The notes under the pieces: model-generated
Seen by the model: only the letters and a program-made list of their open reading frames with translations
The model's database searches: none
What the model was told of the DNA's origin: nothing
Made by a program: the position numbers and the translations under genes
Source: Candidatus Saccharimonadota bacterium
GTDB lineage: Bacteria; Patescibacteriota; Saccharimonadia; Saccharimonadales; Saccharimonadaceae
Direction of reading: 5' to 3'
DNA: 32,000 bases
Assembly: GCA_039920285.1 (NCBI GenBank)
Contig: JBDSDX010000001.1
Span: 510,001-542,000, forward strand
Shown: positions 16,304-28,294 of the stretch, in pieces
Numbering within the stretch: position 1 is the first letter of the stretch
Layout of the letters: every line of letters begins with the position of its first letter

Positions 16304-16318
16304 TCGTAGACGAGATCA

Positions 16319-16350
16319 CAAAAACGCCTTCCGTTTGGGAGGCGTTTTTG
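16319..16350 (+). terminator. rho-independent terminator after rpoC
   Basis: AAAAACGCCTTCC-gttt-GGGAGGCGTTTTT. Confidence 0.8.
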
Positions 16351-16361
16351 GTTGGTTATGC

Positions 16362-16390
16362 TTTCAATTTTAAAGGGGTAAAGATATAGT
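16362..16390 (+). promoter_or_regulatory. candidate promoter TTTCAA-17-TATAGT
   Basis: The -10 box ends 8 nt before ATG 16399. Confidence 0.4.
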
Positions 16391-16398
16391 GGTTGACT

Positions 16399-17082
16399 AT
16401 GCAAGCTGGTGAAAAACTAAAAGAATTCGTGAGAGAATTCGATCCCTTTGATGAGAGACAGACTCCAACTGACGATCAACTCATCGATATCATTGAACTC
16501 TTCCTTGAGCTAAACAAAGGATTACTCTTGAGGTTCAGCTCGGATGTTCGCATGATGCCTGTATCAGATGAGCACGGCACTGCAACAGCGTTCGAAGTTT
16601 CACTCAAAGTACCCGCACGTGATGGGTCATATCTTCATGTTGTAGTGTTCGGCCACAATAGTGACGATAGCTTGGTTGATACAAATATTTCTGTCATCGA
16701 ACACCTACCTGGCGGCAATTATCAAACCGGACATCTCTACTCATTTTCATACGGAAATGTTGTCCGTTCCGATTTGGGTCTCGATCAAACGGACGACCCT
16801 GACGAGCAAAGGACTCACTTTAGCCTGTTTACTCTTCATGAGTCTCGAGACTTTCTTCGAGAACTCGAACAGAGTGAAGACCCGGAAGAAGTGAGAGTTG
16901 CATTAGAAACGAGAGCACAGCTCGACGATGACGAGAAAAACCTTGATCTTGCAGAACAGATGGGATACAACGTTCAGCCTGTTGATAAAGAAGAAATCGA
17001 AAAATTAGTACTGTTGTTATTTGATGCTGAATCTTTCCCACCCTCGATGTTTCCACATGCAGGTAATGACAGCATTTACTAA
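16399..17082 (+). CDS. hypothetical acidic protein (227 aa)
   Basis: Clean ORF between rpoC and rpsL; ATG 16399 is preferred over TTG 16393. D/E-rich; no recognised motif. Confidence 0.6.
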   Translation: MQAGEKLKEFVREFDPFDERQTPTDDQLIDIIELFLELNKGLLLRFSSDVRMMPVSDEHGTATAFEVSLKVPARDGSYLHVVVFGHNSDDSLVDTNISVIEHLPGGNYQTGHLYSFSYGNVVRSDLGLDQTDDPDEQRTHFSLFTLHESRDFLRELEQSEDPEEVRVALETRAQLDDDEKNLDLAEQMGYNVQPVDKEEIEKLVLLLFDAESFPPSMFPHAGNDSIY

Positions 17083-17092
17083 TCTGTCGCAA

Positions 17093-17103
17093 TCTGTTAG
17101 AAT
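17093..17103 (+). promoter_or_regulatory. extended -10 promoter TCTGTTAGAAT for rpsL-rpsG
   Basis: Variant of the recurrent motif, 10 nt after the stop of the preceding ORF. Implies a ~145-nt leader. Confidence 0.5.
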
Positions 17104-17252
17104 ACAAGGTGAGTTTCCGCTTATCATTACGAGTTAATGTACAAGATTCGTAATACGAGATAAGCACCGTTTTCAAAGGATGCTGACCTGAGAGAACACC
17201 CACATAGCGATTTCTTGCTATGCATCAAATTAATGAGGAAGTTTATTCAAAC

Positions 17253-17666
17253 ATGCCAACAATCAACCAGTTAGTGCGCAAGCCACGAAAGACCGCTCAC
17301 CAGAAGAGTAAATCTCCTGCGTTGGGTCGTATTCACAATGCGCTCAAGACTCGTTACTACGAACAAAACTCTCCACTAAAACGTGGCGTGTGTATCAAAG
17401 TAACGACCAAGACCCCTAAAAAGCCTAACTCTGCTCTCCGTAAGGTTGCCCGTGTTCGTTTGACCAATGGTCAAGAAGTCTGGGCATACATCGGTGGAGA
17501 AGGTCACAACCTCCAAGAGCACGCCGTTGTGCTTGTTCGTGGTGGTCGTGTTCCAGACCTTCCAGGTGTCCGTTACCACATCGTTCGTGGTGCACTCGAC
17601 CTTCAAGGTGTTGCCAACCGTAAGCAAGGCCGTTCTAAATACGGTGCAAAGAAGGATACTAAGTAA
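17253..17666 (+). CDS. rpsL: 30S ribosomal protein S12
   Basis: [14 protein letters not shown]-terminus, GAGGAAG SD 7 nt upstream, [16 protein letters not shown] motif. Confidence 0.97.
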
Positions 17667-18145
17667 TGCCACGAAAAGTTACTGCGAGCCTTCAGCGCCG
17701 CCTCAACCCAGACCGCCGCTACCAAAGCGTTATGGTCCAACGCCTTATCAACAAATCAATGCTTGACGGCAAAAAGCTCCTTGCAGAGCGTGCTGTCTAT
17801 ACTGCACTTGAAACTGCTGCCAAGAAACTTGATAGCGAAAACCCTCTTGAAGTGTTCGAACGAGCACTCAAGAACATTTCACCAAACTTCGAGGTTAAAT
17901 CTCGTCGTGTCGGTGGTGCAAACTACCAAATCCCATTCCCAGTTGCTGGTCACCGCCAGTTGCACTATGCGTTTAGCTGGCTTGTCCAAGCATCGCGTGC
18001 ACGTAAGGGTATTCCATACTCTCAACGTTTGGCTATGGAAATCGTTGACGCGTACAACGAAACAGGAGCTGCCTTCAAGAAAAAAGAAGACACCCACAAA
18101 ATGGCCGAAGCCAACCGTGCTTTTGCCCACTTCGCTCGCGGTTAA
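17666..18145 (+). CDS. rpsG: 30S ribosomal protein S7
   Basis: TAATG overlap with rpsL. VKSRRVGGANYQIP and AEANRAFAHFR signature. Confidence 0.97.
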   Translation: MPRKVTASLQRRLNPDRRYQSVMVQRLINKSMLDGKKLLAERAVYTALETAAKKLDSENPLEVFERALKNISPNFEVKSRRVGGANYQIPFPVAGHRQLHYAFSWLVQASRARKGIPYSQRLAMEIVDAYNETGAAFKKKEDTHKMAEANRAFAHFARG

Positions 18146-18158
18146 TACCATACAGAAC

Positions 18159-18192
18159 AAAAATATTCGTCCTCTCTGGGCGGATATTTTTT
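18159..18192 (+). terminator. rho-independent terminator after rpsG
   Basis: AAAATATTCGTCC-tctct-GGGCGGATATTTT followed by TT (two G-U pairs). Confidence 0.7.
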
Positions 18193-18202
18193 ATGAAAAC
18201 TA

Positions 18203-18232
18203 TTTACAAACCCCATTCCGCTCATGTATAAC
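18203..18232 (+). promoter_or_regulatory. candidate promoter TTTACA-18-TATAAC
   Basis: Shares ATTTACAAACC with the -35 region of the rpsJ promoter at 26486-26496. Confidence 0.4.
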
Positions 18233-26613: not shown

Positions 26614-26940
26614 ATGGCAGAAGCACCAAAAGAAGCGGGTCTCCGAATCCGTATTCGACTCAAGGCGTATGATCACAAGGTCATCGACCAATCAGCAAAA
26701 CAAATTATCGACACGGCTATCCGTACCGGTGCGAGCATTGCTGGACCAGTACCACTTCCAACACGTCGCAGTACGTTCACGGTTGTCAAAAGCCCGCACG
26801 TATACAAAAAGGGTGGTGAAACGTTCGAAATGCGTATTCACAAGCGTTTGATTGATATCACTAACGCAACACCAAAGACGATCGACAGTCTGCAAAACCT
26901 CAGTCTTCCAGCTGGCGTTGACGCAGAAATCCGCATGTAA
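26614..26940 (+). CDS. rpsJ: 30S ribosomal protein S10
   Basis: [29 protein letters not shown] and [12 protein letters not shown] signatures. Confidence 0.95.
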
Positions 26941-26954
26941 TTTCATCTGGATAT

Positions 26955-26981
26955 AAAATAGCCTCGAAAGGGGCTATTTTT
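26955..26981 (+). terminator. rho-independent terminator after rpsJ
   Basis: AAAATAGCCTC-gaaa-GGGGCTATTTTT. Confidence 0.75.
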
Positions 26982-26987
26982 GTATCG

Positions 26988-27016
26988 TTGTGAAGACAAA
27001 GCGTATGCATTATACT
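26988..27016 (+). promoter_or_regulatory. candidate promoter TTGTGA-17-TATACT for the pilin gene
   Basis: Hexamers with a 17-nt spacer, 23 nt before ATG 27040. Confidence 0.45.
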
Positions 27017-27039
27017 GATCTCAGAATGTTGGCTTTATT

Positions 27040-27711
27040 ATGATGACGCGTCGAGGGTTTACAATTGTTGAGCTATTAGTTGTCATTGTTGTTATTGGCA
27101 TTTTGGCAAGTATCGGCATCGTCAGTTATGGTGCAATCATACAGAAATCTGATGAAGCAACCATAAAAACAGGCATAGGCTACCAGTCACAACTGGTTCG
27201 TAAGTACTTTGCTGACAATAACAAATATCCCGCAACGTTGGCTGACACTGGTCAAACAGATAGTTCAACACCAAATATCACCTATGTTTATGTCTACGAT
27301 GCGGTCGCTAAAGATTATTGCCTCTCGGGTAAAAGTAATCGCAATAGCTCACCCTCATTTAAAGTAAATGCTGCGGGTGACGTTACTGCTGGTGAATGCT
27401 CGATACCTGCGCCTAACTATACGTATCCGACTTTGACACAAGATTTCCATCCATGTTACCCAGCATTTCCTAACTACTCGTATACATACAGTGCGACAGG
27501 AGATGGAACTATCACCTATGCTGTGCAGAGTGGAGCACTTCCCCCTGCTTTCACTCTAAATAGTGCCACAGGAAATCTTTCAGGAGTAGTTGCGAGTCCT
27601 GTCGCAAACAGCGGAACGACCTACAATTTTGTTATTGCAGCAACGAATAGTGGTGGATCAGCGACACAATCTGTCACACTGACGCTCTACAAAATGGTAT
27701 GTCCACCGTAG
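27040..27711 (+). CDS. type IV pilin-like protein with C-terminal putative Ig-like (He_PIG / cadherin-like) domain
   Basis: Prepilin signal MMTRRG|FTIVELLVVIVVIGILA with Glu at +5. Cys pair DYC...GEC. C-terminal TITYAVQSGALPPAFTLNSATGNLSGVVA..TYNFVIAATNSGGSATQSVTLTL. Confidence 0.8.
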   Translation: MMTRRGFTIVELLVVIVVIGILASIGIVSYGAIIQKSDEATIKTGIGYQSQLVRKYFADNNKYPATLADTGQTDSSTPNITYVYVYDAVAKDYCLSGKSNRNSSPSFKVNAAGDVTAGECSIPAPNYTYPTLTQDFHPCYPAFPNYSYTYSATGDGTITYAVQSGALPPAFTLNSATGNLSGVVASPVANSGTTYNFVIAATNSGGSATQSVTLTLYKMVCPP

Positions 27712-27738
27712 TGAGTGACTAATTATTTAAGATATATT

Positions 27739-27768
27739 AAAAATAGCCCCGCAAACGAGGCTATTTTT
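27739..27768. terminator. bidirectional terminator between the convergent pilin gene and the 27782-28048 gene
   Basis: AAAAATAGCC-ccgcaaacga-GGCTATTTTT. Confidence 0.75.
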
Positions 27769-27781
27769 AAATTGATTGATA

Positions 27782-28048
27782 CTAGTTGCTATTTTGAATT
27801 GTGACTAACGAGTCAGTCAAACTTGAGATGTCGAGTTGTAGCTTGACGATCCAGAGTTGGCTAAAGACAATAAATCCGACCAAAATGATCCAATAGACTG
27901 TTTGTCGAGTAATTTTCATTGATGAGAAAGGTTTCGTGTCTGGTGACATTACGAAAGATTTCATTGGTGGTACAGCTTTCGCCTTTGAAACGCGTGCCTT
28001 TGATGCCGTTGGTTTCTTTGCTGGTGTTGCCTTCTTTTTAGTGGCCAT
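27782..28048 (-). CDS. small membrane protein (88 aa): Lys/Ala-rich N-terminus plus one TM helix
   Basis: AAGGAAC SD before ATG 28048. MATKKKATPAKKPTASKARVSKAKA, then YWIILVGFIVFSQLWIV. Confidence 0.5.
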   Translation of the reverse strand: MATKKKATPAKKPTASKARVSKAKAVPPMKSFVMSPDTKPFSSMKITRQTVYWIILVGFIVFSQLWIVKLQLDISSLTDSLVTIQNSN

Positions 28049-28148
28049 AGAGGTTCCTTGATTATGATTCTAAACATGAGTATGACCAATGTCAGTGATA
28101 AACACAAGCGTTATTTTAAACACCTCCTCAGAACAGAGGCCAAAGGTG

Positions 28149-28177
28149 TTGACTCACGACCACTGATGTGTTAGATT
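28149..28177 (+). promoter_or_regulatory. promoter TTGACT-17-TAGATT (TGT extended) for rplC and downstream genes
   Basis: TTGACT 28149-28154, 17-nt spacer ending in TGT, TAGATT 28172-28177. Confidence 0.55.
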
Positions 28178-28294
28178 AAGTGGGTAACTTTATTAAGAAA
28201 TAACAAATAATTCTTGGTGAATTGGCAAGTCGGCGTCGCTTAGCGGCAAAGATACTACCTCCCACCAAGAATTTTAAGTGGGAGAATGAAGAGC
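28178..28294 (+). promoter_or_regulatory. structured 5' leader of the rplC operon with mutually exclusive helices
   Basis: 11-bp perfect stem 28209-28219 / 28263-28273. Alternative 7-bp helix CTCCCAC 28259-28265 / GTGGGAG 28278-28284 covers the SD. Confidence 0.4.

Follow-up and report, generated by a model that had tools for sequence, protein, structure and literature searches.

We analysed a stretch of 32,000 nucleotides (positions 510,001 to 542,000 of contig JBDSDX010000001.1, GenBank assembly GCA_039920285.1; hereafter the window) from a Candidatus Saccharimonadota bacterium, which carries the rpoBC-str-S10 gene cluster together with additional genes, here called cassettes, at five of the junctions between its core genes. 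Saccharibacteria are tiny, parasitic, ultra-small epibiotic bacteria that belong to the candidate phyla radiation (CPR, or Patescibacteria), and few gene linkages in bacteria are as well conserved as rpsG-fusA-tuf and rpsJ-rplC, both of which are interrupted in the window. The window is a piece of a CPR chromosome with a GC content of ~45%, and its lineage is Candidatus Saccharimonadales, close to 'Ca. Microsaccharimonas': its EF-G was 75-83% identical to the EF-G of Candidatus Saccharibacteria/Saccharimonadales metagenome-assembled genomes in a species-representative genome set, and a 'Ca. Microsaccharimonas sp.' genome was among its close relatives.

Pfam matches and open reading frames (ORFs) agreed with the initial annotation of this DNA that the core order rpoB-rpoC-rpsL-rpsG-fusA-tuf-rpsJ-rplC is colinear, with all genes on the + strand (rplD was likewise confirmed), and that all five junctions are occupied (Table 1). 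The gaps measured 949 bp (rpoC-rpsL), 3136 bp (rpsG-fusA), 1292 bp (fusA-tuf), 758 bp (tuf-rpsJ) and 1345 bp (rpsJ-rplC), and each held one to three extra genes, giving nine cassette genes: c1; c2a, c2b and c2c; c3a and c3b; c4; and c5a and c5b, numbered by junction. Elsewhere the cluster was compact. The rpoB-rpoC and rpsL-rpsG junctions and all ~20 junctions from rplC onward were tight in the clade to which the window belongs, rpoB and rpoC being separated by 1-4 bp in the window and in its relative L082 (L numbers denote the loci used for comparison), and in L090 and L092 the tight order ran on into and across the spc genes, with the whole rplC-to-rpsE stretch uninterrupted. Because the other junctions are tight within the clade, and because phyla outside the CPR have gaps of less than ~400 bp at these same five positions, the pattern of gaps is not a matter of chance.

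Table 1. Core genes, cassette genes and predicted regulatory features of the cluster (positions within the window; aa, amino acids; HhH, helix-hairpin-helix; pI, isoelectric point; id, identity).
Feature	Position	Strand	Remarks
rpoB	8986-12462	+	Pfam RNA_pol_Rpb2 domains
rpoC	12464-16303	+	Pfam RNA_pol_Rpb1 domains; tight pair with rpoB, first transcription unit
Predicted intrinsic terminator after rpoC	16319-16350	+	14-bp stem and T-run; hairpins at the same place in L082, L090, L092, L088
c1, acidic 227-aa protein	16399-17082	+	rpoC-rpsL junction; pI 4.3
Predicted rpsL promoter and structured leader	17075-17252	+	TTTACT-17-TAGAAT with TG; TCTGTTAGAAT at 17093
rpsL	17253-17666	+	Pfam S12; 96% aa id to L082
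rpsG	17666-18145	+	Pfam S7; 94% aa id to L082; start overlaps rpsL stop
Predicted terminator hairpin after rpsG	18159-18192	+	RNAfold; hairpin and T-tail at the same position in most clade genomes checked
c2a, 246-aa protein	18317-19057	+	First gene of the rpsG-fusA module; no Pfam or NCBIfam match
c2b, 339-aa acidic protein	19100-20119	+	Anchor family of the rpsG-fusA junction; own TGTTATAAT box at 19060
c2c, 360-aa acidic protein	20113-21195	+	Start overlaps c2b stop; stop 15 bp before fusA promoter
Predicted fusA promoter (TCTGTTATAAT) and conserved leader (AAAGCGCTATTTTTTATGGCAAAAAATAAT)	21211-21281	+	Upstream alignment; leader 21222-21281
fusA (EF-G)	21282-23381	+	Pfam; 94% aa id to L082
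Predicted terminator after fusA	23390-23411	+	9-bp GC-rich stem, then TTTTTGTTT
c3a, RadC-like	23456-24097	+	UPF0758 N-terminal HhH domain and degenerate JAB domain
c3b, 167-aa all-alpha protein	24094-24597	+	Overlaps c3a by 4 bp; ends 2 bp before tuf -10 region
Predicted tuf promoter and conserved leader hairpin	24581-24673	+	TTTACA-17-TATAAT, TCTG before; 11/12 consensus match
tuf (EF-Tu)	24674-25855	+	Pfam; 94% aa id to L082 (tblastn)
Predicted bidirectional hairpin after tuf	25876-25903	.	Also ends c4; RNAfold; similar hairpins in clade relatives
c4, 138-aa basic protein	25977-26393	-	Only candidate ORFan; no Pfam, NCBIfam, PADLOC or PHROG match
Predicted rpsJ promoter and ~100-nt leader	26488-26613	+	TTTACA-17-TATTAT, TCTGTTATTAT
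rpsJ (S10)	26614-26940	+	Single-gene unit; Pfam; 100% aa id to L082
Predicted terminator after rpsJ	26955-26982	+	RNAfold; position conserved
c5a, type IV pilin-like	27040-27711	+	N-terminal methylation motif and He_PIG Ig-like domain
Predicted bidirectional terminator	27737-27770	.	Between convergent c5a and c5b; 15-bp stem
c5b, 88-aa protein	27782-28048	-	Lys-rich N-terminus and one hydrophobic helix; pI 10.5
Predicted rplC promoter and conserved leader	28149-28285	+	TTGACT-17-TAGATT with TG
rplC	28286-28909	+	Pfam
rplC-rplD-rplW-rplB-rpsS-rplV-rpsC	28286-31978	+	Rest of S10 operon unbroken; ORFs abut or overlap; Pfam for rplC, rplD

Cassette genes and their relatives

Seven of the nine cassette genes were found at the same junction in relatives whose EF-G is 86-95% identical to that of the window, the cassette proteins themselves being just 23-67% identical; orthologues of c1, c2a, c2c, c3a, c3b and c5b were recovered by iterative searches among the fetched loci. 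The comparison of synteny returned the same order in related assemblies, most completely in L082, which reads rpoC, a 95-aa gene, c1, rpsL-rpsG, c2a, c2b, c2c, fusA, a 183-aa gene, the RadC-like gene, c3b, tuf, the pilin, rpsJ, c5b (minus strand) and rplC. Core proteins of the window and L082 were 80-100% identical (90-100% for rpoB, rpoC, rpsL, rpsG, fusA, tuf, rpsJ and rplC; 82% for rplD; 80% for rplW); cassette proteins were 37-67% identical and lay at the same junctions except for the pilin c5a. Nonsynonymous divergence (dN) against L082 was 0.25-0.66 for the cassettes and 0.01-0.13 for the core, with all ORFs intact; since synonymous sites were saturated for most cassettes (NG86 undefined), dN and ORF integrity were used in judging constraint. 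By these measures the cassettes are best regarded as real, fast-evolving genes under weak-to-moderate constraint. Their proposed status as lineage-specific genes was borne out, and the label 'ORFan' had to be withdrawn for all but c4: c3a is RadC-like, c5a is a pilin, c2b and c3b have 65 and at least 165 relatives, respectively, and c1, c2a, c2c and c5b have positional orthologues.

At the rpoC-rpsL junction, c1 matched no Pfam, NCBIfam, PADLOC or PHROG model; its orthologues lie at the same junction in L082 (38% identity, dN 0.66) and L090, and a metagenome scan, which needs exact 8-residue words and is weak evidence, returned no close relative. The rpsG-fusA junction holds three genes, the first of which (c2a) has orthologues in the same junction of L082 (67% identity), L090, L092, L084 and L091. 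An exhaustive HMMER search of a 50%-identity library with c2b yielded 65 representative relatives at E<=0.001, ~290-380 aa long except for one 249-aa partial match and one protein of 2321 aa. The c2b family was counted at this junction in 7 of 7 genomes. In the window and in L082, L086 and L088 it is flanked by rpsG and fusA, and in L084 and probably L085 (both contigs without rpsG) it lies upstream of fusA; relatives with as little as ~23-28% identity (L084, L086, L088; ~23-40% overall) were still found upstream of fusA. The L090 slot contains a gene of the same size as c2b, and the partner genes next to c2b differ between genomes. The AlphaFold2 (AF2) model of c2b was a confident two-module alpha/beta structure (predicted local distance difference test, pLDDT, 88.5) with no significant match in Foldseek searches against PDB and BFVD or in a PDB profile search; the top matches, weakly dCache-like and portal-like, were rejected as chance-level (template-modelling score ~0.1-0.2). 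A word-seeded search with c2c found 2 clusters among 5.8 billion, namely itself and P0002 (59% identity), and it was the P0002 match that led to contig L082 with the whole arrangement. Profile-level relatives of c2c lie directly upstream of fusA in L082, L090, L005 and L001. Like c1, both c2b and c2c are very acidic (pI 4.3-4.5); paralogy of c2b and c2c was considered and rejected (BLASTP E 0.002, alignment out of register).

The two genes before tuf form a pair. The UPF0758 N-terminal HhH domain of c3a was clearly present (PF20582, E 2e-16, 60 bits against a cutoff of 27.1), and the region of the GLGPA motif was conserved in its orthologues, the two glycines being invariant. The JAB domain was also detected (PF04002, 1e-7, 32 bits), and the full-length NCBIfam RadC model matched end to end at 4e-26. 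While these matches place c3a near the RadC/UPF0758 family, it differs in that the NCBIfam match falls below the cutoffs, in that the HxH zinc ligands of the HxH...S..D metal site are replaced (HNH to IGS in the alignment to 2qlc) and in that it holds a fixed place before tuf, where it is coupled to c3b. The HxH is lost in every orthologue of the clade, and in L086 and L091 the JAB domain is absent, only the 88-aa N-terminal HhH domain being kept. The RadC-like gene and c3b stand directly upstream of tuf in 7 of 7 genomes; in L090, L091 and L092, too, the start of c3b overlaps the RadC-like stop by 4 bp, with tuf directly after.

A profile search with c3b returned at least 165 related clusters, all of them unnamed Saccharibacteria proteins. 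The pattern WY.VRC...HG is invariant, as is R102-x4-H107 (RCDLFH, in a long helix) across 46 sequences, and the full set of invariant polar residues (N32, T39, D44, D90, R102, C103, H107 and E130) suggests an active or binding site. The AF2 model was confident and all-alpha (pLDDT 87, predicted template-modelling score, pTM, 0.81), and Foldseek and a PDB profile search gave no PDB match above chance. An all-alpha fold with an invariant R-x4-H recalls the HEPN RNases (Rx4-6H), which we take as a lead only; assignment to that family was not accepted, since the motif stands without sequence or structure support: c3b matched no HEPN model in Pfam, NCBIfam or PADLOC, and no HEPN structure was recovered.

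Between tuf and rpsJ lies c4, for which no relative was present in any fetched locus (no broad protein-database search was made) and no close relative turned up when JGI metagenome contigs were scanned with a stringent peptide pattern, a method whose reliance on exact 8-residue words makes this weak evidence. Its upstream region contains the best promoter-like site of the scan (26474-26446, 11/12, with TG) and a plausible GAAAGG ribosome-binding site. An ORF of 152 aa (26393-26851, +) is almost certainly spurious: it matched no family and runs, in another frame, across the rpsJ promoter and leader into rpsJ itself. The first of the two convergent genes at rpsJ-rplC, c5a, matched N_methyl (PF07963; 2e-6, 27.4 bits, cutoff 21.2), He_PIG (7e-8) and the NCBIfam model IV_pilin_GFxxxE (TIGR02532; 1.5e-7, 30.9 bits, cutoff 16.3), and has the prepilin motif followed by a hydrophobic helix that marks a type IV pilin (19-residue hydrophobicity maximum 2.95). 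Its orthologue in L082 (16440-17417) is at tuf-rpsJ and not at rpsJ-rplC. Type IV pilin-like genes, with N_methyl and Ig-like or adhesin-type domains, recur in or near these junctions across lineages, at differing junctions; L019 has two in tandem at fusA-tuf (2726-5519), one with a Fib_succ_major domain, and another pilin-like gene occurs in L091 (1-898). The second gene, c5b, would be a small membrane protein; it has minus-strand orthologues at rpsJ-rplC in L082, L084, L090, L091 and L092 and a dN/dS of ~0.26.

The composition of the cassettes carried no foreign signal. GC was 0.41-0.47 in 8 of the 9 genes (c4, 0.51) and the codon adaptation index (CAI) 0.42-0.56 in 8 of 9 (c5b, 0.69, within the core range), values like those of ordinary window genes such as hisS, SpoU and clpP (GC 0.44-0.47, CAI 0.50-0.66; core CAI 0.62-0.78), and GC at third codon positions was likewise similar for most. 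Domain, tRNA and repeat scans upheld the earlier view that these are not classical islands. No integrase, recombinase or transposase domain was detected in the cassettes with Pfam, NCBIfam or PHROGs; the repeats found in a search of the flanks were short chance ones, none bracketing a cassette; and a tRNA attachment site near the cassettes was not seen, the sole tRNAs of the window lying at 1333-1417 and 3178-3264. A concatenate of c1, c2a-c, c3b, c4 and c5b with a further ORF upstream of rpoB (hyp217, described below), from which c3a and c5a were excluded, had no tblastn match among 50,697 phage and 72,556 plasmid records; PHROG matches were restricted to c3a and the N-terminus of c5a, and no known defence protein model of PADLOC matched beyond a chance-level Csx1 (E 0.04), the sole PADLOC match of c3b.

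Promoters, terminators and 5' leaders

The promoters, terminators and read-through described here are sequence predictions throughout. Stable hairpins followed by T-runs were found after all five upstream core genes, as the initial annotation had held, and T-tailed stable hairpins lie 3' of rpoC, rpsG, fusA, tuf and rpsJ in most relatives checked, with differing sequences. It had also been noted that three cassettes end close to the next core promoter with no terminator between. This agreed with our analysis: the distance from the stop codons of c1, c2c and c3b to an element of the form TCTGT(T)A(G/T)AAT is 2-15 bp, with no intervening hairpin, and transcription of these cassettes into rpsL, fusA and tuf is plausible. 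Sites of the general form TCTGT(T)AnnAT were confined to the upstream regions of rpsL, fusA, tuf, rpsJ, tig and tRNA-Leu and never lay inside genes; the best interpretation of the element is as the strong extended -10 promoter that this organism uses. The copy upstream of the tRNA-Leu gene (1333-1417, minus strand) is TCTGTTATAAT at 1438 (-). Another copy of TCTGTTATAAT, at 6230 (+), falls inside the listed TTG-start ORF of tig, and the real start of tig is therefore probably an ATG near 6248. The separate -10 box ascribed to each cassette held up as a consensus-level match only.

Alignments of the 170 nt before rpsL, fusA, tuf, rpsJ and rplC from six to eight clade genomes showed the -35 and extended -10 elements to be conserved and the 5' leaders strongly so. 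The rpsL leader contains a hairpin (17119-17165, GCTTATC...GATAAGC) followed by a TTTT run (17170-17173). The clade keeps this leader, and against L082 and L090 (GTTCATC...GATGAAC) the stem differs by two compensatory changes; its role may be attenuation or protein binding, and transcripts reading through from c1 would encounter it as well. The fusA promoter motif was found 70-97 nt 5' of the start codon in 6 clade genomes, and the -35, -10 and leader of tuf (24610-24673; hairpin ATACGTCATGAG...CTTATGCGAAATAATTA) were conserved across the clade. The rpsJ leader (26517-26613; GAACTCGGCCAGACG ... CGATTCGAGCAGAGGTTACGG) was nearly invariant over six genomes, with one predicted pair changed on both sides. 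Nearly invariant as well was the rplC leader (28178-28285; window, L082, L084, L090, L091 and L092), in which AATTCTTGGTG can pair with CACCAAGAATT ~60 nt downstream, in competition with a hairpin (CTCCCAC/GTGGGAG) in which the Shine-Dalgarno sequence is sequestered; this leader is a candidate ribosomal-protein autoregulatory RNA. The six sequences available for the rplC and rpsJ leaders vary too little for covariation to decide, and none of the five leaders matched an Rfam family at gathering or E<=1 thresholds. Together, the conserved promoters, leaders and terminators argue for core fragments that have long been transcribed as autonomous units.

The same junctions in other genomes

To compare the junctions more widely, core genes were mapped on 80 loci around fusA and the gaps tabulated. 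Wherever the genes were adjacent in Proteobacteria, Firmicutes and Acidobacteria, gaps at these junctions were below ~400 bp, and two Saccharibacteria, L008 and L015, were equally compact. In many other Saccharibacteria, from one to three of these five junctions carried gaps on the kilobase scale: rpoC-rpsL in L003 (2.7 kb), rpsG-fusA in L005 (5.6 kb), fusA-tuf in L019 (3.5 kb), rpsJ-rplC in L009 (7.5 kb) and L012 (4.8 kb), and three gaps in L004 (2.1, 1.6 and 2.1 kb). The rpoB-rpoC, rpsL-rpsG and rplC-rplD junctions were below ~400 bp in nearly all loci. Apart from relatives of c2c (L005, L001) and pilins (L019), the content of these gaps was unrelated to the cassettes of the window; the inserts, in either orientation, were mostly ordinary genes, including CTP synthase (pyrG), an MprF C-domain, alpha-amylase, a nucleotidyl (NTP) transferase, VanY, PBP5-type carboxypeptidase, PGA_cap, C39-like peptidases, PAP2, DUF520, APH, NUDIX and pilins. 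Inserts belonging to ordinary housekeeping families, a possibility raised at the outset, are thus found in distant relatives, and within the window only the RadC-like gene and the pilin fall to known families. These data indicate that the five junctions are specifically permissive in Saccharibacteria, and the clade of the window, with four to five of them filled, is the extreme case.

A gene for a VanY-type D-Ala-D-Ala carboxypeptidase recurs near tuf-rpsJ or rpsJ-rplC in several Saccharibacteria (L084 9326-10201, minus strand; L009 15565-16425, minus strand; L086 from 16562; L091 12938-13822) and is absent from the window; in L009 it is accompanied by the PBP5-type, PGA_cap and C39-like peptidase cell-wall genes. 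Upstream of the five junctions, a sixth is filled in the window by hyp217, a 217-aa acidic ORF (8249-8902, +) between clpP (7616-8212) and rpoB (8986) with its own TGTATAAT box at 8231; it had no Pfam, PADLOC or PHROG match and no relative among the fetched loci, and the clpP-rpoB gap is merely ~200-250 bp in L008, L012 and L015. The genes preceding rpoB are tig-clpP (window 6212-8985) and not the usual nusG-rplKAJL, an order also present in L008 and L012 (clpP-rpoB in L015), which may represent an older rearrangement of the cluster that is widespread in the phylum.

Origin of the arrangement

We consider it probable that the rpoBC-str-S10 cluster is fragmented throughout the clade by inheritance, as displayed in the window, and that native, lineage-restricted genes colonised its gaps long ago. 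Under this explanation the ancestral polycistrons would have been cut at five points to give [rpoB-rpoC], [rpsL-rpsG], [fusA], [tuf], [rpsJ] and [rplC...], each unit acquiring its own strong extended -10 promoter, conserved 5' leader and intrinsic terminator; because the boundaries would no longer carry operon function, we propose that genes lodged there were harmless. The residents (c1; c2a-c2b-c2c; the catalytically degenerate RadC-like gene with c3b; the pilin; and the small membrane protein) would have been inherited vertically over the long term, evolving at the protein level 5-15 times faster than the core. The compact state is likely to be ancestral and the occupied state derived and then inherited, as L008, L015 and the other phyla are compact and the occupied state is shared by the clade. 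The layout presumably arose by a gradual invasion of the kind that operates between operons in Proteobacteria and Bacilli, and its residents may persist because synteny is generally high in Saccharibacteria (it is high within the G1 group despite an average amino-acid identity of 55-65%; McLean et al., PMC7427843) and because deletions beside essential genes are risky.

Invasion between operons of the rpoBC-str-S10 cluster has been described for Gammaproteobacteria and Bacilli; in Gammaproteobacteria, for example, rpoBC and str are separated by tusDCB, and str and S10 by bfd-bfr (PMC8046335). The window resembles such operon-cluster invasion (Brandis 2021) in that the same cluster is affected, the core is colinear in one orientation, the inserts are below 10 kb (gaps here 0.76-3.1 kb) and they form small sets of genes. 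As there, these genes would be chromosomal, non-mobile and vertically inherited; composition, phage and plasmid comparisons and the ordinary genes at these junctions in other lineages gave no sign of long-distance transfer. The inserts highlighted in that work lie mostly between operons (nrdHEF between rplL and rsmC excepted), however, whereas the rpsG-fusA, fusA-tuf and rpsJ-rplC cuts of the window fall inside the classical str and S10 operons. Further differences are that five consecutive boundaries are filled, that each fragment has its own promoter, leader and terminator and that the inserts are mostly without known function and very fast-evolving. Given the intra-operon positions, we call the arrangement a variant of operon-cluster invasion; no description of such an architecture in Saccharibacteria or other CPR bacteria was found in a literature search.

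Several observations weigh against inherited fragmentation as the full explanation. Generic promoter and terminator scans yielded no more sites than shuffled sequence, so that the regulatory predictions draw their weight from where the sites lie and from their conservation in relatives. The ancestral states were read from a comparison of only ~20 sampled Saccharibacteria loci. Some turnover must be admitted, because the pilin occupies a different junction in L082, c4 is confined to the window and L082 has the extra 95-aa and 183-aa genes. Finally, the fixation of c2b before fusA and of the RadC-like/c3b pair before tuf, with the overlap kept and no terminator following, could mean functional coupling.

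That last possibility leads to the view, which we regard as unlikely, that the resident families, above all c2a, c2b and c2c before fusA and the RadC-like gene with c3b before tuf, are new accessory factors that serve translation elongation in this lineage and are held in place by selected co-transcription with the elongation-factor genes; they could regulate, modify or protect EF-G or EF-Tu. Though diverged to 23-50% identity, they keep the same place in all the genomes examined, they share the orientation of fusA and tuf with no terminator ahead of the promoters of these two genes, c3a and c3b overlap by 4 bp, c3b has its invariant polar residues, and the confident models of c2b and c3b mean that these are real proteins. 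General synteny of the type seen in the G1 group could nevertheless explain a fixed position without function, codon adaptation is low (0.42-0.51) next to highly expressed neighbours, downstream of the cassettes both fusA and tuf are served by strong promoters of their own, c2b has varying partners, the RadC-like gene is decaying, and no domain or fold ties any cassette protein to translation. Its more specific form, in which the c2b module before fusA and the dead RadC-like gene with the Rx4H protein c3b before tuf are recruited, co-transcribed partners, modifiers or guardians of the two factors, we hold to be somewhat less probable still.

Improbable, too, and a shade more so, is an origin as recombination landing pads, the cassettes being horizontally acquired cargo that entered, for instance, by natural transformation with the conserved core genes as homology arms. 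The unrelated content in both orientations at the same junctions in different Saccharibacteria lineages fits this model, as do the changing position of the pilin (rpsJ-rplC in the window, tuf-rpsJ in L082, fusA-tuf in L019), the restriction of c4 to the window and the extra genes of L082. Hot spots for genomic islands likewise combine lineage-variable content with highly conserved flanks, but the window has no integrase, tRNA attachment site, direct repeats, compositional deviation or similarity to phage, plasmid or defence genes, and its content is stably inherited within the clade. The positional orthologues, moreover, predate a divergence to 23-67% identity, the inserts of other lineages are ordinary housekeeping genes and not accessory cargo, and in Proteobacteria and Bacilli long-distance transfer proved not to be what drives insertions of this kind (PMC8046335). 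Of the initial proposal of permissive landing pads, the permissive boundaries stand, being lineage-variable in content or compact; ORFan insertions that 'landed' there are not supported, given that seven of nine cassettes are positional orthologues of native composition. Scarcely credible is an artefact of chimeric metagenome assembly or of spurious ORFs in spacers, for which the metagenomic source of the window and the lack of a detectable relative of c4 might speak: an independent Logan contig (L081) carries an identical c2b-c2c-fusA stretch and, with seven other assemblies from different studies that show the same order, rules out a chimeric contig, the ORFs are intact at the divergence given above and c2b and c3b give confident models, so that this reading is effectively refuted for all genes except possibly c4.

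Inherited fragmentation, as the favoured explanation, invokes an ordinary mechanism and overturns nothing; what is new is that some of the cuts fall inside operons and that all five boundaries are filled, which will be of note to specialists in operon evolution or CPR biology, together with the attached protein families and the leaders. The arrangement is also a warning that assumptions of ribosomal-cluster synteny, as made in binning and marker extraction, can fail in Saccharibacteria. Both c2b and c3b are confidently folding, Saccharibacteria-restricted proteins with no known fold relative and are targets for functional work in CPR bacteria, and their invariant position beside EF-G and EF-Tu makes them, with the degenerate RadC-like protein, concrete ones; candidates for new regulatory RNAs are the unannotated, conserved leaders of rpsL, fusA, tuf, rpsJ and rplC. 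A whole clade in which these linkages are broken and each fragment has a predicted promoter, leader and terminator of its own indicates that the linkages are dispensable under some lifestyles, and it offers a natural test case for why the concatenation of operons is otherwise preserved.

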